Of a stretch of 64,000 nucleotides of DNA, positions 1,747 to 62,833 are shown in pieces. The notes beneath the pieces were generated by a model. It was not told the origin of the DNA. It searched no databases and worked only from the letters and a program-made list of their open reading frames with translations. The stretch comes from Escherichia coli O157:H7 (GTDB taxonomy: Bacteria > Pseudomonadota > Gammaproteobacteria > Enterobacterales > Enterobacteriaceae). The stretch is from assembly GCF_013167455.1 (NCBI RefSeq), contig NZ_CP038328.1. One strand, given 5' to 3'. A program made the position numbers and the translations under genes. Numbering within the stretch: the stretch's first letter is position 1; every line of letters begins with the position of its first letter.

Positions 1747-3507
1747 TTAACCGCGTAATTCGTGCGCCCGACGAAAACGACCTTCGTAATCGAACACTTT
1801 TTCACGCACTTGCCAGTACTGACCTTTCATGCGGGCAACGACAAAATCCGGGTGTCGCAATAAGGCTTGCTGGGCGAGGATATCGGCGGCGGTGATCCAG
1901 CGCAGAGGGATGCCCGGTGTGCGCGTATGCGGGCGGATAAAAAGCTGCTCGAAGGCAGTTCGCTGGGCGGGCGTTTGCAGACGGAAACGCTCACTCACAT
2001 CCGCGCCGTCTTCATCGTAATAGGTGATTTTCAACCATTCGCCTTTCTCGTCGTGCCCATGCTGCAAAGACATGCCGCTACAGCGTAATACCAGCGCATC
2101 TTTCAGTCGTAGCGCCGCTTTTAACATATCATCCGGATCAACCAGTACCGTGTCACATTCGCGGCAGCGGCGAGCGGCAATATCATTTTCTGCGTTACAT
2201 TGCGGGCAATTTTTAAAACGGAAACGGAAGTCACACTGTTCGCGATGACCGTCGTCATCTTCAAACCATCCCTGACAGCGGCGACCAAAGTGTTCAATCA
2301 ATGTCCCGTCGGCGGTCGTTTTCCCCCAAAAGGTGTTGGCAAAACCGCAGGCAGGGCAGAAAACCTGTACCGGAACGTTGTCACTTTTGCCTTTCGGTGT
2401 ACCAACTTCCGGCGCGTAGAGATCGTGAGGATTACCCGCATAATCAAGAATTAAGCAATCAGTCTTGCCAGGAGCGAGACGCAGACCGCGCCCGACAATT
2501 TGTTGGTAAAGACTCACTGATTCGGTAGGGCGCAGAATGGCGATAAGATCGACGTGCGGGGCGTCAAATCCGGTGGTCAGTACCGCGACGTTGACCAGAT
2601 AGCGAAAACGCTGGGCTTTAAAATCTTCAATTAACACATCGCGCTCAGCGCCGGGGGTGTCGCCAGTAATCAGTGCAGCATCTTCGGCGGGTAGTAATCC
2701 CACAATCTCTTTTGCGTGTTCAACGGTGGCGGCGAAAATCATCACCCCTTTGCGCGTTGCAGCAAACTCCATAATCTGGCTGATGATGTGCGGGGTAATA
2801 CGTTGTTGTTTTTTTAGCTCGCGGTTGAGATCGGCTTCGCTGAATAGCCCGTTACTCTGTGCCTGCAAGCGGCTGAAATCGTATTGCACTACTGGCATAT
2901 CCAGTCGTTCTGGCGGCGTCAGATAGCCGTGTTTAATCATATAACGCAGCGGCAGTTCATAAATGCAGTCACGGAAAAGGGCTTTCTCATCGCCGCGTAC
3001 CATGCCGTGATAATGGAACTGGTAGATCCAGCCTTTGCCCAGTCGAAAAGGCGTGGCAGTCAGCCCCAGCAGGCGTAAGTGGGGATTCACTTTTGTCAGG
3101 TGAGTGAGGATTTGCTGATACTGGCTCTCTTCATCGTCACCAATACGGTGACATTCATCGACAATCAACAGCGAAAATTCACCCTGAAAGGCATCAAGAT
3201 TACGGGCGACCGACTGCACGCTGCCAAATACCACTTTACCGTGGCTCTCTTTGCGCTTTAGCCCGGCGGCAAAAATATCGGCTTCCAGCCCCAGCGCCTG
3301 ATACTTTGCATGGTTTTGCGCCACCAGTTCTTTAACGTGTGCCAGCACCAGCACGCGACCACGAGCCAGCCGCGCAAGTTCCGCTATCACCAGGCTTTTA
3401 CCTGCACCGGTGGGCAGCACGATAACGGCAGGGGTTTTATGACGACGAAAATGGTTGAGCGTGGCATCCACGGCTTCTTGCTGATATGGGCGGAGTGTAA
3501 AAATCAT
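1747..3507 (-). CDS. radD: ATP-dependent DNA repair helicase RadD (YejH), SF2 helicase with C-terminal zinc-finger region
   Basis: 586-aa ORF with Walker A (PTGAGKS), DECH box and cysteine-rich C-terminal part. Confidence 0.92.
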
Positions 3508-26712: not shown

Positions 26713-26805
26713 TTTCTGACGGGCAGAAAGCCGTCGCCCGTACTCATCAAACATACCGAAACCTGGCGCTGACGCCGGGTTTACTGGCATGAAGGGAAAA
26801 TCATT

Positions 26806-28056
26806 ATGGACATAATGAGAAGTGTTGTGGGGATGGTGGTGTTACTGGCAATAGCATTTCTGTTGTCAGTGAATAAAAAGAGCATCAGTTTGCGTACGGT
26901 TGCAGCCGCACTACTGCTGCAAATTGCTCTTGGTGGCATCATGCTCTATTTTCCGCCGGGAAAGTGGGCTGTAGAACAGGCGGCATTAGGCGTTCATAAA
27001 GTGATGTCTTACAGTGATGCTGGTAGCGCCTTCATTTTTGGTTCGCTGGTCGGGCCGAAAATGGATGTCCTCTTTGACGGTGCGGGTTTTATCTTCGCCT
27101 TTCGCGTACTTCCGGCGATTATCTTCGTCACTGCGCTCATTAGTCTGCTGTACTACATTGGCGTGATGGGGCTGCTGATTCGCATCCTTGGCAGCATTTT
27201 CCAGAAAGCCCTCAACATCAGCAAAATCGAATCTTTTGTCGCAGTCACCACTATTTTCCTCGGGCAAAATGAGATCCCGGCGATCGTTAAACCGTTTATC
27301 GATCGCATGAATCGAAACGAGTTGTTTACGGCTATTTGTAGCGGGATGGCGTCCATTGCTGGTTCGATGATGATTGGTTATGCCGGAATGGGCGTACCAA
27401 TTGACTACCTGTTGGCGGCATCGCTGATGGCGATCCCCGGCGGTATTTTGTTTGCACGTATTCTTAGTCCAGCAACCGAGCTTTCGCAGGTCACGTTTGA
27501 AAATCTGTCGTTCAGCGAAACGCCGCCAAAAAGCTTTATCGAAGCAGCGGCGAGCGGTGCGATGACCGGGCTGAAAATCGCCGCTGGTGTGGCGACGGTG
27601 GTAATGGCATTTGTGGCAATTATTGCGCTGATCAACGGCATTATCGGCGGAATTGGCGGCTGGTTTGGCTTCGCCAATGCTTCTCTGGAAAGTATTTTTG
27701 GCTATGTGCTGGCACCGCTGGCGTGGATCATGGGTGTGGACTGGAGTGATGCCAACCTTGCGGGTAGCCTGATTGGGCAGAAACTGGCGATTAACGAATT
27801 CGTCGCTTACCTGAGTTTCTCCCCATACCTGCAAACGGGCGGCACGCTGGAAGTGAAAACCATTGCGATTATCTCCTTTGCGCTTTGTGGTTTTGCTAAC
27901 TTTGGTTCTATCGGTGTTGTCGTTGGGGCATTTTCGGCTATTTCGCCAAAACGCGCACCGGAAATCGCTCAGCTTGGTTTACGGGCGCTGGCAGCAGCAA
28001 CGCTTTCCAACCTGATGAGCGCGACCATTGCCGGGTTCTTTATTGGTCTGGCGTAA
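26806..28056 (+). CDS. psuT: NupC-family nucleoside (pseudouridine) transporter
   Basis: 416-aa CNT-family ORF, close paralog of the ORF at 29996-31246. Confidence 0.9.
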   Translation: MDIMRSVVGMVVLLAIAFLLSVNKKSISLRTVAAALLLQIALGGIMLYFPPGKWAVEQAALGVHKVMSYSDAGSAFIFGSLVGPKMDVLFDGAGFIFAFRVLPAIIFVTALISLLYYIGVMGLLIRILGSIFQKALNISKIESFVAVTTIFLGQNEIPAIVKPFIDRMNRNELFTAICSGMASIAGSMMIGYAGMGVPIDYLLAASLMAIPGGILFARILSPATELSQVTFENLSFSETPPKSFIEAAASGAMTGLKIAAGVATVVMAFVAIIALINGIIGGIGGWFGFANASLESIFGYVLAPLAWIMGVDWSDANLAGSLIGQKLAINEFVAYLSFSPYLQTGGTLEVKTIAIISFALCGFANFGSIGVVVGAFSAISPKRAPEIAQLGLRALAAATLSNLMSATIAGFFIGLA

Positions 28057-29896: not shown

Positions 29897-29995
29897 GTGT
29901 TGATAACAAGCCGGGCCGGTATCGCAAGATGCAGGCCTGGCTATTTCTGATGGGCAGAAAGCCGTCGCCCAATATGACATGAAGAGATAATCACT

Positions 29996-31246
29996 ATGGA
30001 TGTCATGAGAAGTGTTCTGGGAATGGTGGTATTGCTGACGATTGCGTTTTTACTGTCAGTAAACAAGAAGAAGATCAGCCTGCGTACCGTTGGCGCGGCG
30101 TTAGTGTTACAGGTCGTGATTGGCGGCATTATGCTTTGGTTACCGCCAGGGCGTTGGGTCGCTGAAAAAGTCGCTTTTGGTGTGCATAAAGTGATGGCGT
30201 ACAGCGACGCGGGTAGCGCATTTATCTTCGGTTCTCTGGTCGGACCGAAAATGGACACCTTATTTGATGGCGCAGGATTTATCTTTGGTTTCAGGGTATT
30301 ACCGGCAATTATCTTCGTCACTGCACTGGTGAGTATTCTCTACTACATCGGTGTGATGGGGATTTTAATTCGCATTCTCGGCGGTATATTCCAGAAAGCA
30401 TTAAATATCAGCAAGATTGAGTCATTCGTCGCGGTCACTACCATTTTCCTCGGGCAAAACGAAATTCCGGCGATTGTGAAGCCCTTTATCGATCGGCTGA
30501 ATCGCAATGAATTATTTACAGCGATTTGTAGCGGCATGGCCTCGATTGCTGGTTCGACAATGATTGGTTATGCCGCACTGGGCGTGCCTGTGGAATATTT
30601 GCTGGCGGCATCGTTAATGGCGATCCCCGGGGGGATCTTGTTTGCCCGCCTGCTAAGCCCGGCTACGGAATCTTCGCAGGTTTCTTTTAATAACCTCTCT
30701 TTCACCGAAACACCGCCAAAAAGCATTATTGAAGCCGCCGCGACAGGGGCAATGACCGGGCTGAAAATCGCCGCAGGTGTGGCGACAGTAGTGATGGCAT
30801 TCGTCGCCATCATTGCGTTAATTAACGGTATTATCGGCGGCGTTGGCGGCTGGTTTGGTTTTGAACATGCCTCGCTGGAGTCCATTGTAGGTTATCTGCT
30901 GGCCCCACTGGCGTGGGTAATGGGTGTTGACTGGAGTGATGCGAATCTTGCCGGGAGTTTGATTGGACAGAAACTGGCAATAAATGAATTTGTCGCTTAT
31001 CTCAATTTCTCACCCTATCTGCAAACGGCTGGCACTCTGGATGCTAAAACCGTGGCGATTATTTCCTTCGCGTTGTGCGGTTTCGCTAACTTTGGTTCTA
31101 TCGGGGTGGTGGTGGGGGCGTTTTCTGCGGTTGCGCCACACCGTGCGCCGGAAATCGCCCAGCTTGGTTTACGCGCGCTGGCGGCGGCGACACTTTCTAA
31201 CCTGATGAGTGCCACCATTGCCGGGTTCTTTATTGGTTTAGCGTAG
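29996..31246 (+). CDS. nupX: NupC-family nucleoside transporter
   Basis: 416-aa ORF, highly similar along its full length to the psuT product. Confidence 0.9.
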   Translation: MDVMRSVLGMVVLLTIAFLLSVNKKKISLRTVGAALVLQVVIGGIMLWLPPGRWVAEKVAFGVHKVMAYSDAGSAFIFGSLVGPKMDTLFDGAGFIFGFRVLPAIIFVTALVSILYYIGVMGILIRILGGIFQKALNISKIESFVAVTTIFLGQNEIPAIVKPFIDRLNRNELFTAICSGMASIAGSTMIGYAALGVPVEYLLAASLMAIPGGILFARLLSPATESSQVSFNNLSFTETPPKSIIEAAATGAMTGLKIAAGVATVVMAFVAIIALINGIIGGVGGWFGFEHASLESIVGYLLAPLAWVMGVDWSDANLAGSLIGQKLAINEFVAYLNFSPYLQTAGTLDAKTVAIISFALCGFANFGSIGVVVGAFSAVAPHRAPEIAQLGLRALAAATLSNLMSATIAGFFIGLA

Positions 31247-47332: not shown

Positions 47333-47383
47333 AATGATTGTGGTCCGCATTCGGTCATAAACGCACATAACATCATGATCTGT

Positions 47384-47565
47384 GTGGTTTTGTAGGCCGG
47401 ATAAGGCGTTCACGCCGCATCCGGCGACAGGAGCCAAATGCCGGATGCAACGCTGGCGCGTTTTATCCGGCCTGCAATGAGCTCAACATACTGATTTGTA
47501 TGGTTTTGTAGGCCGGATAAGGCGTTCAAGCCGCATCCGGCGACAGGAACCAAATGCCGGATGCG
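47384..47565. repeat. BIME-type cluster: two near-identical ~64-bp REP-containing units spaced ~117 bp apart
   Basis: tggttttgtaggccggataaggcgttca(c/a)gccgcatccggcgacagga(g/a)ccaaatgccggatgc occurs at 47384-47448 and 47501-47564. Confidence 0.75.
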
Positions 47566-47574
47566 TCTCTGGTT

Positions 47575-57029: not shown

Positions 57030-57731
57030 ATGACTCAATACGTATTCGAACCGCAAGCGCCCGTTACCGTACCGGTTGTTGGCAGTGATGAACAATTCCC
57101 CGTGCGCCGCGTTTACTGCGTCGGACGTAACTATGCCGCTCACGCCCGCGAAATGGGCTTTGATCCGGATCGTGAACCGCCATTCTTCTTCTGCAAACCG
57201 GCGGATGCCGTTGTTCCGGTTGCCGCTGGTGAAACGCTGGCGCTGCCGTATCCGGCACAGACCGATAACTACCATTACGAAATTGAACTGGTGGTGGCGA
57301 TTGGTAAAAAAGGCAGCGATATCCCGCTGGAACACGCCCATGAATATGTCTGGGGTTATGCCACGGGTCTTGATATGACTCGGCGTGACCGTCAAATGGA
57401 AATGCGCCAGATGGGCCGCCCGTGGGAAATCGGTAAAGCGTTTGATCTCTCAGCGCCCATCGCGCCGCTGCACAAAGCCCGCGATATCGGCGGTATTGAT
57501 AATGCGCCAATCTGGTTACAGGTTAACGGCGAAGATCATCAGCGCAGCGATATTCGCCATCTCATCTGGTCGGTGAATGAAACCATCTGCTATCTGTCAG
57601 GCTTCTTTGAGCTGCAACCGGGCGATCTGATCTTCACCGGTACGCCGGAAGGGGTTGGCCCGGTAGTGAAAGGTGATGTGATCACAGGCAACGTCGAGGG
57701 CTTAACGCCTATCGCGGTGAAGATTGTCTGA
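57030..57731 (+). CDS. mhbH: Fumarylpyruvate hydrolase (FAH family)
   Basis: 233-aa ORF of the fumarylacetoacetate hydrolase family; 14 bp after the dioxygenase gene. Confidence 0.8.
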
Positions 57732-57736
57732 GGTGC

Positions 57737-58384
57737 ATGATGAAGCTGTACAGTTTTTTTAATAGTTCAGCGTCGTACCGGGTACGCATTGCGCTGGCGC
57801 TGAAAGGCATTAATTACCAGACCGAAGGGGTGAATATCCGTATTGGTCAGCAAAATGAACTGGCCTATCGGCGGATGAATCCGGTCGGGCTGGTGCCGAC
57901 GCTGCTGACTGACGAGGGCGAATCACTCGGACAATCGCTGGCGATTATTGACTGGCTGGAGAGGCACTACCCGCAAGTTCCGCTGGTGCCGCAGGAAGAG
58001 CCGGCCCGCAACAAGGTGCTGGAAATTGTCTATGCCATCGCTTGTGATATTCATCCATTGAATAACTTGCGCGTGCTGCGCTACCTGACCGAAGAACTGA
58101 ACGTCAGTGAAGAAGAAAAAAAACGTTGGTATGCGCACTGGATCCAGCAAGGGTTAAGCGCGGTGGAACAACTGTTGCGCCAGAACCAGTCGGGGCAATT
58201 TTGTGTGGGCGAGACGCCGACGCTGGCAGATTGCTGCCTTGTCCCGCAGTGGGCGAACGCGCTACGCATGAACTGCGATTTGAGCGGGTATCCACGCTGC
58301 AAAGCGGTGTACGACGCCTGCACACAGCTGCCAGCGTTCATTGCCGCAGCGCCAGAAAATCAACAAGATAAAATTTCAGCCTGA
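57737..58384 (+). CDS. mhbI: Maleylpyruvate isomerase (GST zeta / maleylacetoacetate isomerase family)
   Basis: 215-aa ORF with GST N-terminal thioredoxin-like fold (MKLYSFFNSSASYRVRIAL). Confidence 0.8.
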   Translation: MMKLYSFFNSSASYRVRIALALKGINYQTEGVNIRIGQQNELAYRRMNPVGLVPTLLTDEGESLGQSLAIIDWLERHYPQVPLVPQEEPARNKVLEIVYAIACDIHPLNNLRVLRYLTEELNVSEEEKKRWYAHWIQQGLSAVEQLLRQNQSGQFCVGETPTLADCCLVPQWANALRMNCDLSGYPRCKAVYDACTQLPAFIAAAPENQQDKISA

Positions 58385-58398
58385 CCAGGAGAACTATA

Positions 58399-59592
58399 AT
58401 GACGAAAGTGACACGCGCAGTAATTGTGGGAGGCGGGATCGGCGGTGCGGCAACTGCGCTGTCACTGGCCCGCCTGGGGATCAAAGTGGTGCTGCTGGAA
58501 AAGGCGCATGAGATCGGTGAGATTGGCGCGGGCATCCAGTTGGGGCCAAATGCGTTTTCGGCGCTGGACAGCCTCGGCGTCGGCGAAGTTGCCCGCCAGC
58601 GCGCGGTGTTTACCGATCACATTACCATGATGGATGCGGTGAACGCCGAAGAAGTGGTGTGCATTGAAACCGGGCAGGCCTTTCGTGACCATTTCGGCGG
58701 CCCTTACGCGGTGATCCACCGGGTTGATATTCACGCCTCGGTGTGGGAAGCGGTACTGACGCATCCGGACGTGGAATATCACACCTCCACCAACGTCGTG
58801 GATATTCGCGAGACGGAAGACGATGTCACCGTGTTTGACGATCGCGGCAATAGCTGGACCGGCGATATTCTGATTGGCTGTGACGGCGTGAAGTCAGTGG
58901 TGCGCCAGAGCTTATTGGGCGATGCGCCGCGTGTCACCGGACATGTTGTCTACCGTGCGGTTATCGATCGTGCCGATATGCCGGAAGATTTGCGCATTAA
59001 CGCACCGGTACTGTGGGCGGGGCCGCATTGTCACTTGGTGCATTACCCTTTGCGCGGCGGCAAGCAGTATAACCTGGTGGTAACATTCCACAGCCGCCAG
59101 CAGGAAGAGTGGGGCGTGAAGGATGGTAGTAAAGAGGAAGTGCTCTCTTACTTTGAAGGGATTCACCCCCGTCCGCGCCAGATGTTGGATAAACCGACTT
59201 CATGGCGACGCTGGTCAACCGCTGACCGTGAACCGGTGGCGAAGTGGGGAACGAAGCGCATAACGCTTGTGGGCGATTCGGCCCATCCGGTGGCGCAATA
59301 TATGGCGCAGGGAGCCTGTATGGCGCTGGAAGATGCAGTAACGCTGGGTAAGGCGCTGGCGCAGTGTGAGGGTGATGCGGCGCAAGCCTTTGCGCTGTAT
59401 GAGTCGGTACGAATTCCGCGCACCGCGCGCATCGTCTGGTCGACCCGTGAAATGGGGCGGGTTTACCACGCCGCAGGGGTAGAACGCCAGGTACGTAATC
59501 TGCTGTGGAAAGGGAAATCGCAGGCAGAATTTTATCGCGGCATGGAGTGGTTGTACGGCTGGAAAGAAGATAACTGTTTGCAACCACGCTAA
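58399..59592 (+). CDS. mhbM: FAD-dependent 3-hydroxybenzoate 6-hydroxylase (flavoprotein monooxygenase)
   Basis: 397-aa ORF with GxGxxG FAD motif (VIVGGGIGGAATA) and salicylate hydroxylase-like core. Confidence 0.8.
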   Translation: MTKVTRAVIVGGGIGGAATALSLARLGIKVVLLEKAHEIGEIGAGIQLGPNAFSALDSLGVGEVARQRAVFTDHITMMDAVNAEEVVCIETGQAFRDHFGGPYAVIHRVDIHASVWEAVLTHPDVEYHTSTNVVDIRETEDDVTVFDDRGNSWTGDILIGCDGVKSVVRQSLLGDAPRVTGHVVYRAVIDRADMPEDLRINAPVLWAGPHCHLVHYPLRGGKQYNLVVTFHSRQQEEWGVKDGSKEEVLSYFEGIHPRPRQMLDKPTSWRRWSTADREPVAKWGTKRITLVGDSAHPVAQYMAQGACMALEDAVTLGKALAQCEGDAAQAFALYESVRIPRTARIVWSTREMGRVYHAAGVERQVRNLLWKGKSQAEFYRGMEWLYGWKEDNCLQPR

Positions 59593-59751
59593 GCACTTCT
59601 TCACCCAATCAGGCGCACGGGCGGTCCCCTCGCCCCTTCGGGAGAGGGTTAGGGTGAGGGTAAAAATCTTGCCCGAATTAATCAGTAAGTCAGTTTGTCT
59701 GCAAACACAGGAGGCGCTAACATAGCGCCTCATTTTTTTGCGGGTGATGAT

Positions 59752-60702
59752 ATGCGTGTGTTACTGGCTCCGATGGAGGGAGTGCTTGACTCTCTGGTGC
59801 GTGAATTGCTGACCGAAGTTAACGACTACGATCTGTGCATCACCGAGTTCGTCCGCGTGGTGGATCAACTGCTGCCGGTGAAAGTCTTTCATCGCATTTG
59901 CCCTGAGCTACAAAACGCCAGCCGGACACCATCCGGTACGCTGGTGCGCGTGCAGTTGTTGGGTCAGTTCCCACAATGGCTGGCAGAGAACGCCGCCCGT
60001 GCGGTGGAATTAGGTTCCTGGGGCGTGGATCTCAATTGCGGCTGCCCGTCGAAAACGGTTAACGGTAGCGGTGGTGGGGCGACGTTACTCAAAGATCCTG
60101 AACTCATCTACCAGGGGGCAAAAGCGATGCGTGAAGCTGTACCGGCGCATTTGCCCGTCAGCGTGAAAGTGCGTCTGGGCTGGGACAGCGGTGAGAAGAA
60201 ATTTGAAATCGCCGATGCGGTTCAACAGGCTGGTGCTACGGAGCTGGTGGTGCATGGACGGACAAAAGAGCAGGGTTACCGCGCGGAGCATATTGACTGG
60301 CAGGCGATTGGCGAGATTCGCCAGCGGCTGAATATTCCGGTGATTGCCAACGGCGAAATCTGGGACTGGCAGAGCGCGCAAGAATGCATGGCGATCAGCG
60401 GCTGCGACTCAGTGATGATTGGTCGCGGGGCGCTCAATATTCCCAACCTGAGCCGGGTAGTAAAATATAACGAACCGCGAATGCCGTGGCCGGAGGTGGT
60501 TGCTTTGCTGCAAAAATATACCCGTCTGGAAAAGCAGGGCGATACCGGGTTATATCACGTAGCGCGGATTAAACAGTGGTTGAGTTATTTGCGTAAAGAA
60601 TACGATGAAGCAACAGAATTATTTCAGCATGTTCGTGTGTTGAATAATTCCCCTGATATTGCAAGGGCTATTCAGGCAATTGATATCGGTAAGCTGCGAT
60701 AA
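59752..60702 (+). CDS. dusC: tRNA-dihydrouridine(16) synthase DusC
   Basis: 315-aa product from [14 protein letters not shown]; track ORF has a 19-codon upstream extension. Confidence 0.9.
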
Positions 60703-61089
60703 TAGTGGAATCGCAGTTTATCAGAAACAATGAATCGCTTATTCAGCTTCATCATCTTGTTGCGCTCCTTTCATGAGCTAAGCCACATATTGCCACTGGC
60801 GCAAGGAGCGCGCAGGGGGAGGACAATCGCCTCCTCCCCCTGCACCCCCGGGCTCTGGCGAACAAAATCGCCGCTGCGCGGTACCTTCAGCTTATCCCCT
60901 TCGGCTACCGGGTCGGGCGCGAGGAAACGTCCTTGTAAGACGCGCCCTCAGCCCACATCCATGTGGGCTGCCCCGGCCTTCGGGGAACGCTTCAGCGATT
61001 TTGACGCCACCAACACCGGAGCTGTTTGCAAATCAAGTACACAAAATATCTAGTTCCTGACCTGACAACTTATATGTCATATCTGATTT

Positions 61090-61173
61090 TTAAAATATCA
61101 TCTTAAATACGCCAGTCACCACCAGTAGCCCAATCAGGAAAATAATCAATACAGCCCAGAGTATAATTTTCAT
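61090..61173 (-). CDS. yohP: 27-aa single-TM small membrane protein YohP
   Basis: Manual translation of the minus strand gives MKIILWAVLIIFLIGLLVVTGVFKMIF then stop; below the ORF-track size cutoff; weak RBS (aaaggaacgccaATG). Confidence 0.6.
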   Translation of the reverse strand: MKIILWAVLIIFLIGLLVVTGVFKMIF

Positions 61174-61396
61174 TGGCGTTCCTTTATTTGTGAGTGCTGA
61201 ATAAGTATAGGAAAAAACGAAGCCCTTTGCCGTTATCCATAAACGATTAAGATAAATCGGAAGATATCATTCACTTAGTGTATATTTTTCTGGATATGTC
61301 GTTTTATTGCTACTGATGTATTGCCACGCGAAACTAAAAAATATATCGCAACACACGGTAATCTCCGCGCACCTTTTCTTACCTGATTATTCCCCC

Positions 61397-62833
61397 ATGA
61401 ATCGTGATTCCTTTTATCCAGCCATCGCCTGTTTTCCGCTGTTACTGATGCTGGCCGGGTGTGCGCCTATGCATGAAACCCGCCAGGCGTTAAGCCAGCA
61501 AACGCCCGCTGCACAAGTTGACACCGCATTACCCACGGCGCTGAAAAATGGTTGGCCAGACAGCCAATGGTGGCTGGAGTATCACGATAATCAACTCACT
61601 TCCTTAATTAACAATGCACTACAGAACGCACCGGATATGCAGGTGGCTGAACAGCGCATTCAGTTAGCTGAAGCCCAGGCGAAGGCAGTTGCTACTCAGG
61701 ATGGTCCGCAGATCGACTTTTCTGCGGATATGGAGCGGCAAAAAATGTCGGCAGAAGGGCTAATGGGGCCGTTTGCTCTGAACGATCCGGCCGCAGGTAC
61801 GACCGGTCCGTGGTACACCAACGGAACTTTTGGCTTAACGGCGGGCTGGCATCTCGATATCTGGGGAAAGAATCGGGCGGAGGTTACTGCCCGCCTGGGT
61901 ACGGTTAAAGCACGGGCGGCGGAACGCGAGCAAACCCGCCAATTGCTGGCTGGCAGCGTAGCCCGCCTGTACTGGGAGTGGCAAACCCAGGCGGCGTTAA
62001 ACACGGTCTTGCAGCAAATCGAAAAAGAGCAGAACACCATTATCGCGACCGATCGCCAGCTATATCAGAACGGGATTACTTCTTCAGTTGAAGGTGTGGA
62101 AACCGATATTAATGCCAGCAAAACCCGGCAGCAGCTCAACGATGTCGCGGGGAAAATGAAAATTATTGAGGCACGGTTAATTGCACTCACAAATCACCAG
62201 ACTAAGTCATTGACGCTTAAACCGGTGGCGTTGCCGAAAGTGGCAAGCCAGCTTCCTGATGAACTGGGGTACTCCTTACTGGCCCGGCGGGCAGATTTGC
62301 AGGCGGCGCACTGGTACGTTGAGTCATCGCTAAGCACCATTGATGCGGCAAAAGCGGCATTTTATCCTGACATCAACCTGATGGCCTTCCTGCAACAGGA
62401 TGCGTTGCACTTAAGCGATCTGTTCCGTCATTCCGCGCAGCAAATGGGCGTTACGGCAGGCCTGACGCTACCCATTTTCGATAGTGGTCGTCTTAACGCC
62501 AATCTCGATATCGCAAAAGCCGAAAGCAACTTGTCTATCGCCAGCTACAACAAAGCGGTGGTTGAAGCGGTGAATGACGTGGCGCGGGCAGCCAGTCAGG
62601 TTCAGACACTGGCGGAGAAAAACCAGCATCAGGCGCAAATTGAGCGCGATGCCTTGCGTGTGGTAGGTCTTGCGCAGGCCCGCTTTAACGCGGGCATCAT
62701 TGCTGGTTCCCGCGTCAGCGAAGCCAGAATCCCCGCGCTGCGTGAGCGGGCCAATGGCCTGTTATTGCAAGGGCAGTGGCTGGATGCCTCCATTCAACTC
62801 ACTGGTGCGTTGGGCGGGGGTTACAAACGCTGA
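61397..62833 (+). CDS. mdtQ: Outer membrane efflux lipoprotein (OMF/NodT family), apparently intact MdtQ
   Basis: 478-aa product from MNRDSFYPAIACFPLLLMLAGC (lipobox LAGC); continuous reading frame with no internal stop. Confidence 0.8.
   Translation: MNRDSFYPAIACFPLLLMLAGCAPMHETRQALSQQTPAAQVDTALPTALKNGWPDSQWWLEYHDNQLTSLINNALQNAPDMQVAEQRIQLAEAQAKAVATQDGPQIDFSADMERQKMSAEGLMGPFALNDPAAGTTGPWYTNGTFGLTAGWHLDIWGKNRAEVTARLGTVKARAAEREQTRQLLAGSVARLYWEWQTQAALNTVLQQIEKEQNTIIATDRQLYQNGITSSVEGVETDINASKTRQQLNDVAGKMKIIEARLIALTNHQTKSLTLKPVALPKVASQLPDELGYSLLARRADLQAAHWYVESSLSTIDAAKAAFYPDINLMAFLQQDALHLSDLFRHSAQQMGVTAGLTLPIFDSGRLNANLDIAKAESNLSIASYNKAVVEAVNDVARAASQVQTLAEKNQHQAQIERDALRVVGLAQARFNAGIIAGSRVSEARIPALRERANGLLLQGQWLDASIQLTGALGGGYKR

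Follow-up and report, generated by a model that had tools for sequence, protein, structure and literature searches.

The hairpin-rich dusC-yohP spacer of Escherichia coli O157:H7 is an inverted allele of the TRIP1c/RRS-dusC repeat

The cluster of hairpins that lies between dusC and yohP in Escherichia coli O157:H7 is, on the basis of alignment and shared locus, the O157:H7 allele of TRIP1c, a repeat that is also known as RRS-dusC. We regard this reading, under which the region acts as folded DNA, as highly probable; the triggering of gaps by the O157 allele is inferred from K-12. Relative to dusC and yohP, the copy in the window is inverted with respect to that of K-12. The element is already known and has been functionally characterised in K-12, and the comparative detail added here is modest and incremental.

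Composition and folding of the dusC-yohP spacer

The window analysed is a stretch of 64,000 nucleotides from contig NZ_CP038328.1 (assembly GCF_013167455.1), and coordinates refer to it unless stated otherwise. The genes that border the spacer and the versions of the element within it are as follows, with the strand given where one applies.

59752-60702, plus strand: dusC (context), with C-terminal codons IDIGKLR* here and IDIEKL* in K-12
60748-61051: full stretch common to other E. coli copies, about 304 bp (megablast/blastn)
60759-61031: equivalent of K-12 TRIP1c, 273 bp (from alignments; MG1655 2229122-2229394 from PMC10888264)
60794-61015: 222-bp RRS core (RRS-dusC), 65.8% G+C (222-bp definition as given in the available text of PMC11194060)
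61090-61173, minus strand: yohP (context), a 27-aa small membrane protein

By composition count, the G+C content of 60780-61030 is 64.1%, as against 38.2% and 33.8% in the flanks and 51.3% in the whole window. A preliminary description of this DNA had reported a GC-rich run over 60780-61030, and a composition of 64% between flanks of 34-38% bears this out. The real repeat unit exceeds that span. The description had also remarked that no annotated feature explains the run; no RefSeq feature is found among the matches listed, and since no RefSeq record annotates the element, its rediscovery will recur. The spacer is 100% identical to that of NZ_AP018488.1.

The plus strand of the hairpin region folds at -120.5 kcal/mol, compared with -94.4 kcal/mol (sd 4.9) for dinucleotide-preserving shuffles, which corresponds to a z of -5.34. 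For the minus strand the value is -135.4 kcal/mol, with a z of -5.39 against shuffles of the same kind. None of 200 shuffles reached the real fold energy, so that the comparison with shuffled controls that had been proposed as a check yields a z of about -5.3 on both strands. The four strong hairpins described earlier are all present where they had been placed, and a repeat finder gives arms that are 100% complementary for those at 60813-60842 and 60949-60970. It also detects two stems absent from the preliminary description, namely a long-range stem that joins 60863-60878 to 60988-61003 and a 5' stem that joins 60762-60770 to 60803-60811.

Identity with a catalogued repeat

MG1655 carries one copy of the repeat between aqpZ and lysO and another between yohP and dusC. 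The window copy is 88.6% identical to the K-12 yohP-dusC copy over 272 nt and 90.8% identical to the K-12 aqpZ-lysO copy over 304 nt. Column-by-column alignments confirm the homology to TRIP1/RRS over the 222-bp core, and the window locus, downstream of dusC (yohI) and beside yohP/mdtQ, matches the fixed K-12 TRIP1c locus. The G+C content of the different versions of the element (63.0-65.8%, with 65.8% for the core) agrees with the GC-richness of 62-65% that characterises TRIP1/RRS.

The names TRIP1a and TRIP1c and their K-12 coordinates come from Li et al. 2024 (PMC10888264), together with a partial TRIP1b at putP. According to the available text of that paper, TRIP1 repeats were first listed by Rudd in 1999. 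In Pham et al. (NAR 2024, PMC11194060; NAR 2023, PMC10287960), the same sequences are the Replication Risk Sequences RRS-lysO (TRIP1a) and RRS-dusC (TRIP1c). Li et al. appear to be silent on the RRS work, since they name Rudd 1999 as the sole earlier report on TRIP. An unclassified intergenic repeat family had been one of the options put forward for the hairpin cluster; the terms repeat, structured and non-coding all stand, and only "unclassified" has to be withdrawn, TRIP1c/RRS-dusC being published. The claim of novelty fails because the element matches the catalogued TRIP1 repeat, an outcome that the preliminary description had itself named as counting against it.

The window copy shares with K-12 TRIP1c the locus, the 222-bp core, the helices and the architecture of the G-run. 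It differs from it in its orientation, which is opposite relative to dusC and yohP and hence to the fork, in its junction sequences, including the final codons of dusC, and at two pairs of helix 2, where a compensatory A-T stands in place of C-G and also alters two bases between the tracts of the G4 run. The nearest K-12 sequence overall is TRIP1a (RRS-lysO, MG1655 915016-915281), to which both ends of the window copy are also nearer than to K-12 TRIP1c; TRIP1a differs in its locus, between aqpZ and lysO on the other replichore.

The element lies 45 bp past the dusC stop and 38 bp past the yohP stop, and in E. coli each of the five TRIP1 loci has a stop codon 38-96 bp ahead of it (PMC10888264). 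Such a position, together with hairpins that are very stable on both strands, is what would be expected of a transcription barrier or a REP-like stabiliser of mRNA 3' ends serving the convergent dusC and yohP. We regard this role as unlikely. Neither strand of 60500-61400 contains a hairpin with a T-run behind it, where shuffles lead one to expect 1.2, and this speaks against the bidirectional terminator that had been suggested. In K-12, aqpZ has a separate canonical terminator of its own at the lysO locus, placed between that gene and the element, as is also reported in PMC10888264. Moreover, a terminator role would account neither for a 222-bp multi-helix fold that is kept across genera nor for the paired copies that flank the terminus. 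An effect on transcription could still be a side effect.

Distribution and copy number

Among 5426 complete E. coli genomes, a megablast search with the spacer found 17479 places in 5425, with a median of 3 and a maximum of 8 per genome; overall, a genome carries 1 to 8 or 9 copies. The element is thus an interspersed repeat, which answers the question of whether it recurs within the genome; in O157:H7 PV15-279 a further copy lies in the lysO-aqpZ spacer. Outside E. coli, the core is found at 80-85% identity in Klebsiella pneumoniae, K. aerogenes and K. variicola, and one K. pneumoniae chromosome (filed as a plasmid) contains 13 places. Citrobacter gives shorter matches that have diverged further. 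A pattern scan of a genome collection with CATCCATGNNNGCTNNCCCGGCCTT, at one genome per species, returned 36 stretches and added copies from several Citrobacter species, Pseudocitrobacter and another Escherichia species. As this pattern is probably too strict for other genera, the four genera Escherichia, Klebsiella, Citrobacter and Pseudocitrobacter are a minimum range; Pham et al. also mention Kluyvera. The conservation in other Enterobacteriaceae that had been proposed as a check is therefore present, the core being found in Klebsiella, Citrobacter and Pseudocitrobacter with stems that covary.

A few matches were set aside. One in a Lachnospiraceae MAG was dropped as a chance match, and three MAGs that bear the labels Desulfacinum, Sporobacter and 'Proteobacteria' contain copies of the Klebsiella or E. 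coli type, probably on contaminant contigs.

The varying copy number is compatible with a non-autonomous mobile element of the MITE or REPIN kind, in which case the flipped alleles would be independent insertions. Genus-specific subfamilies occupy non-orthologous loci, one K. pneumoniae spacer carries a tandem pair of copies, and both orientations occur at a single locus. Several observations make this origin quite improbable. Inspection of E. coli junctions revealed no terminal inverted repeats and no recognisable target-site duplication. No empty dusC-yohP site was present among 60 sampled genomes, and in 5287 of 5426 genomes the two flanks are spaced as at an occupied site. Five fixed loci hold 99% of the E. 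coli copies (PMC10888264). The phage collection contained no match to the element, and matches in the plasmid collection are mostly mislabelled chromosomes or very large replicons, genuine plasmid matches being rare. Finally, paralogues within a genome are 94.1% and 92.7% identical, compared with 88.6% and 90.6% for orthologous copies of different strains; since paralogues are closer than orthologues, gene conversion or recombination between the two copies fits better than transposition, which agrees with the large inversions between TRIP1a and TRIP1c recorded in PMC10888264.

A conserved fold in four genera

We aligned 38 distinct copies from four genera (Escherichia, Klebsiella, Citrobacter and Pseudocitrobacter). 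Their consensus fold comprises 12 helices and 64 pairs, among which the following are discussed here.

60763-60810: helix 1, CGCTCCT (60763-60769) paired with AGGAGCG (60804-60810); both partners differ between genera in 3 of 7 pairs
60812-60843: helix 2, the first hairpin described earlier, cagggggagga/tcctccccctg at 60813-60842, overlapping the G-run; compensatory changes in 8 of 10 pairs
60863-61003: helices 4 to 6, long-range closing stems (60863-60890 with 60990-61003) that enclose a multi-branch domain
60871-60881: small hairpin inside the domain of the long-range closing stems (consensus fold)
60915-60947: helices 10 and 11, the second hairpin described earlier, gggcgcg...cgcgccc; one covarying pair in the inner stem
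60949-60970: helix 12, the third hairpin described earlier, cagcccacat/atgtgggctg; 3 of 9 pairs covary
60971-60985: the fourth hairpin described earlier, ccccg gcctt cgggg, which competes locally with the long-range helices 7-9

Strong compensatory covariation is found in the stems across the 38 copies. Standard pairs fill 99.2% of the pair cells, a proportion that falls to 38-47% when the 3' partners are slid by 1-3 columns, and both sides have changed in 25 of the 64 pairs, compared with 1-5 in the slid controls. The observed pairing and covariation values were reached in none of 500 shuffles, and several consensus pairs show at least three pair types. Since many changes are common to a whole genus, the independent events are far fewer than the changed cells.

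The changes in helix 2 include the O157-specific A-T for C-G at two pairs, and helices 4, 5 and 6 have three pairs each that have changed on both sides. Helix 12 occurs in the covarying forms CACA/TGTG, CGCA/TGCG and AGCA/TGCT. Its loop, ATCC-ATG (ATCCAT), is invariant in the 38 aligned copies, an invariance that carries little weight because it was partly imposed by a retrieval pattern containing CATCCATG. The outer stem of the second hairpin, GGGC/GCCC, is also invariant in the 38 copies and is neutral as evidence. The arms of the fourth hairpin pair with 60895-60912 in the consensus fold, and their columns are invariant. The first and third hairpins are well supported, and the fourth is the least secure of the four.

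Covariation of this kind fits a folded DNA strand and a folded RNA alike. On the G-rich strand, a structured noncoding RNA can be envisaged that would be either a relative of TwoAYGGAY (RF01731) or a protein-titrating RNA with GGA loops, the covariation then reflecting RNA folding; the strength of that covariation counts in its favour. TwoAYGGAY is the top Rfam match on this strand in every genus tested, three in all, over the full model (1-168), with 25.9 bits for the window, 30.6 for K-12 lysO and 31.4 and 28.9 for Citrobacter. The element resembles this family in that a long stem closes over two hairpins set side by side, and by one AUGGAU loop, that of helix 12, which on the G-rich strand is the same in all 38 copies, in part through the CATCCATG retrieval. 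The second hairpin loop likewise bears GGA. These GGA loops may resemble the CsrA SELEX consensus, RUACARGGAUGU.

We nonetheless judge such an RNA very unlikely. The family requires two AYGGAY loops, whereas the second loop of the element is AAGGAC (AGGGAU in K-12), and the scores fall below the gathering score of 43 bits, with E-values of 0.15-0.95. When the region (at a permissive threshold), seven related loci and the whole window were scanned against Rfam, no family passed its threshold within the element. The small RNA that had been offered as an option finds no backing in this check, the best match being TwoAYGGAY at 25.9 bits. A promoter and terminator scan revealed no promoter-like site in or beside the element and no terminator. 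No single transcription unit would consistently yield the G-strand RNA, because both orientations occur at one locus. Mismatches on a single side show no clear bias toward G-U (about 8 singleton cells) over A-C (about 13). A function at the level of DNA has been shown experimentally in K-12, according to the available text of PMC11194060 and PMC10287960.

That the ATG-initiated open frame of 107 codons at 60730-61053 encodes a protein is next to inconceivable, since its product is of low complexity, rich in Arg, Pro and Gly and matches no NCBIfam family at E <= 1, its frame has stops in 7 of 8 other Escherichia/Pseudocitrobacter copies and in 16 of 16 Citrobacter copies, substitutions between copies compensate base pairing rather than codons, and RefSeq annotates no feature here among the matches listed. 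The frame had been taken for an artefact from the outset, and its disruption in nearly all other copies, with no NCBIfam match, agrees with this. The wider proposal of a structured noncoding element is likewise upheld by a fold z of about -5.3, covariation of the stems and a frame that is not conserved.

The G-quadruplex run

A regex search located a run that could form a G-quadruplex and that overlaps helix 2.

60830-60849, minus strand: G-quadruplex-forming run GGGGGTGCAGGGGGAGGAGG (G4Hunter-type score -1.92)

The available text of PMC11194060 gives GGGGGTGCAGGGGGCGGCGG as the K-12 G4 motif on one strand of the RRS. The G-tracts of the two runs are equal and two C-to-A differences lie between tracts, so that the window copy has the G4 run expected of an RRS. 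We computed G4 potential ourselves as a G4Hunter-type score. Its magnitude is 1.76-2.12 in 9 of 9 Escherichia/Pseudocitrobacter copies and in 11 of 13 Klebsiella copies, and only about 0.9-1.2 in all 16 Citrobacter copies and in the 2 other Klebsiella copies. The copies with weak G4 potential still form helix 2 from the same bases through compensatory changes. A mechanism centred on the G4 may thus not hold for the whole family, because G4 potential is not conserved and the hairpins are.

Orientation alleles

The plus strand of the window has a GC skew of +0.032 over 64 kb, and so has the leading-strand sequence and serves as lagging-strand template. With the element flipped, the G-run (minus strand) lies on the leading-strand template, and it is the C-rich strand (RRS-C) that serves as template for the lagging strand. 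In O157:H7 PV15-279, the lysO-aqpZ copy (record 1023484-1023757) is also inverted with respect to K-12, with its G-run on the minus strand of the record and a locus skew of +0.046 over 50 kb. The native K-12 arrangement, in which the G4 strand is the lagging-strand template, is found at neither O157 locus. As expected of partner copies, the dusC and lysO copies of PV15-279 are mutually inverted, with G-runs on opposite record strands; they are 1.99 Mb apart, compared with 1.31 Mb in K-12. O157:H7 PV15-279 is the natural counterpart of an engineered double-inverted K-12 strain.

We counted alleles as spacers covered over at least 80% in the 5426 genomes, which gives marginal counts for each locus. 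At the dusC locus the O157-type is present in 1999 of 5426 genomes and the K-12-type in 3309, and at the lysO locus the figures are 895 and 4028. They are in accord with the numbers of forward and reverse copies in PMC10888264, in which both directions are reported at TRIP1a and TRIP1c and inversions between these two loci, reaching about 1.3 Mb, are documented. Among 45 loci examined with GC skew as a proxy, those with more than 10 kb of flank comprise 9 positive and 6 negative cases, so that both orientations are represented, the proxy being too noisy in short loci for a stronger statement. The orientation of the G4 strand is a trait of the K-12 arrangement and not of the sequence family. 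The available text of the RRS literature (PMC10287960, PMC11194060 and a 2026 preprint) was found to contain no link between orientation polymorphism and the RRS model.

An origin of the O157 arrangement from a simple swap of the lysO and dusC copies of K-12 was considered and rejected, as the O157 lysO copy has its own ends, unlike those of K-12 TRIP1c. No short inverted repeats were found at the flip junctions.

Function in K-12 and proposed mechanism in O157:H7

The following is taken from the available text of the RRS papers (PMC10287960, PMC11194060). The K-12 pair flanks dif, each copy at a distance of about 650 kb. In vitro, its G4 run is a block to Pol I, II and IV, and with the G4 strand on the lagging template, ssGAP-seq shows peaks of RecA and SSB that reach about 2 kb. 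Relocated RRS generate new RecA/SSB peaks, whereas an engineered inverted RRS gives no such peak in vivo. Deletion of both RRS needs a 200-kb amplification or other or inverted RRS. Psoralen binding changes genome-wide when both are deleted or inverted, the inverted strain and the double deletion being alike in genome-wide supercoiling. According to the published hypothesis, the gap serves as a topological swivel near the boundary of the Ter macrodomain. In the available text of a June 2026 preprint based on single-molecule imaging, the G4 lagging template yields a gap of about 700 nt at nearly every passage, and the reverse orientation (RRS-C) yields lagging-strand gaps of about 330 nt in about 66% of passages.

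By analogy with K-12, the O157 element would work as DNA and not as a gene. It belongs to a pair of GC-rich elements of about 222 bp, the RRS, that flank the terminus region, its partner lying between lysO and aqpZ. When a fork unwinds the element, the lagging-strand template would fold into a G-quadruplex and stable hairpins before being copied, and the lagging-strand polymerase would stall and re-prime downstream. This would leave a transient gap of single-stranded DNA, from a few hundred to about 2000 nt, bound by SSB and RecA. The O157 allele would expose its C-rich strand, RRS-C, on the lagging template, and from the in-vitro data fewer and smaller gaps are to be expected in O157 than in K-12. 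As the inverted K-12 RRS gave no RecA/SSB peaks, the flipped natural allele may even be weak or inactive as a gap trigger, perhaps with no detectable loading of RecA or SSB. Gap triggering by the O157 allele is in this sense a prediction drawn from K-12.

It is possible, and we put it forward tentatively, that the function under selection is hairpin-driven formation of gaps on the lagging strand irrespective of orientation, or a protein's recognition of the DNA in its folded or cruciform state. We raise this because the stems are kept in four genera, G4 potential collapses in Citrobacter, flipped alleles are common and O157 is inverted at both loci. The flipped O157 elements, the flipped dusC allele of a third of E. 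coli genomes and the hairpins that are conserved without a G4 are natural genotypes for testing the RRS model.

Just two bacterial sequences are known to program post-replication gaps, of which the RRS are one, and the RRS may mark Ter macrodomain boundaries; according to the RRS papers, the only other known bacterial gap trigger that acts by template folding is the pilE-associated G-quadruplex of Neisseria gonorrhoeae. The latter differs from the element in being unrelated in sequence, much shorter, devoted to pilin antigenic variation and not paired on either side of a terminus.

Comparison with REP sequences

The preliminary description held that the hairpins do not belong to the REP family of the same window. 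The naRNA4 model indeed matches the REP/BIME at 47395-47472 (85.8 bits) and nothing in 60500-61400. REP/BIME are like the element in being GC-rich, palindromic, intergenic, multi-copy and often located just past stop codons, and both they and the RRS have been linked to chromosome topology. They (and naRNA4) have no sequence similarity to it. REPs are units of about 35 bp that occur in hundreds of copies and are mobilised by a RAYT transposase, whereas the element is a multi-helix unit of 222-300 bp present 1-9 times per genome.

Direct repeats and decay of copies

Two imperfect direct repeats of one family lie 125 bp apart within the element.

60846-60863, plus strand: direct repeat 1, imperfect (CCCCGG...GAAC; repeat family D1)
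60971-60988, plus strand: direct repeat 2 (CCCCGG), of the same family

TRIP1b is defined by a 125-bp deletion (PMC10888264), of which the CCCCGG direct repeats are probably the end-points. The O157-type lysO copy of MS8345 has an internal deletion exactly between them.

Orientation of the RRS copies in E. coli O157:H7

Both O157:H7 copies of the GC-rich repeat, RRS-dusC in the dusC-yohP spacer and its partner RRS-lysO between lysO and aqpZ, are inverted with respect to those of K-12. Their positions are as follows.

Window 60830-60849, minus strand: G-quadruplex-forming run of RRS-dusC
NZ_AP018488.1 1023484-1023757 (3485-3758 of the O157 lysO locus, L045): RRS-lysO

As a result of these flips, the leading strand of each replichore is copied from the strand that carries the G-quadruplex run. 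The flipped allele is found at dusC in 1999, and at lysO in 895, of 5426 complete genomes. The flipping segment spans about 290 bp and leaves the flanks on either side intact; no inverted repeats were found at the flip junctions. The boundary between the orientation alleles falls within the final dusC codons (window 60690-60702, versus 3439-3450 of the K-12 dusC locus, L004), and the DusC C-terminus reads ...IDIGKLR in O157 versus ...IDIEKL in K-12.

Genes around dusC

Immediately upstream of dusC, O157 carries gentisate-type pathway genes (window ~57700-59592; L002 1-1890), whereas the dusC neighbour in K-12 is yohJ. These O157 genes are:

Fumarylacetoacetate hydrolase family protein
maiA
3-hydroxybenzoate 6-monooxygenase

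The mdtQ gene (window 61397-62833) is intact in the O157:H7 annotation and a pseudogene in K-12 MG1655.

Decayed, tandem and probably misassigned RRS copies

A naturally decayed RRS-lysO copy was observed in the lysO-aqpZ spacer of E. coli MS8345 (L047 17519-17838), where two CCCCGG direct repeats bound an internal deletion. The 125-bp deletion of TRIP1b, the partial copy at putP in K-12, is of the same type. The dusC copy of MS8345 is O157-type.

The pcaC-mscS spacer of K. pneumoniae CP125156.1 (L005 2017-2736) harbors a tandem pair of near-identical RRS-like copies, 437 bp apart. This chromosome comprises 13 RRS-like places in total, which far exceeds the picture of a pair flanking Ter.

RRS copies were also observed on contigs L013, L018 and L044 from metagenome-assembled genomes labelled Desulfacinum, "Proteobacteria bacterium" and Sporobacter termitidis. 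Because these copies and their matching flanks are of Klebsiella or E. coli type, the contigs are probably enterobacterial contamination of the bins.

Other repeats and RNA elements in the window

The palindromic GC-rich block ggcggtcccctcgccccttcgggagagggttagggtgagggt (59620-59665), located between the 3-hydroxybenzoate 6-monooxygenase gene and dusC, occurs once within the 64-kb window and resembles the small intergenic repeats of E. coli. A pair of 88-nt direct repeats, 90% identical and with REP units inside (47369-47572), is an ordinary BIME, the first repeat of which matches Rfam naRNA4 (RF02564) with 85.8 bits. The 300-nt direct repeat at 26785-27084 and 29975-30274 (73% identity, 3190 bp apart) probably reflects paralogous genes. 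Finally, the Rfam L25 ribosomal-protein leader (RF03131), which is expected beside rplY, was detected at 1644-1669 on the minus strand (46.9 bits).
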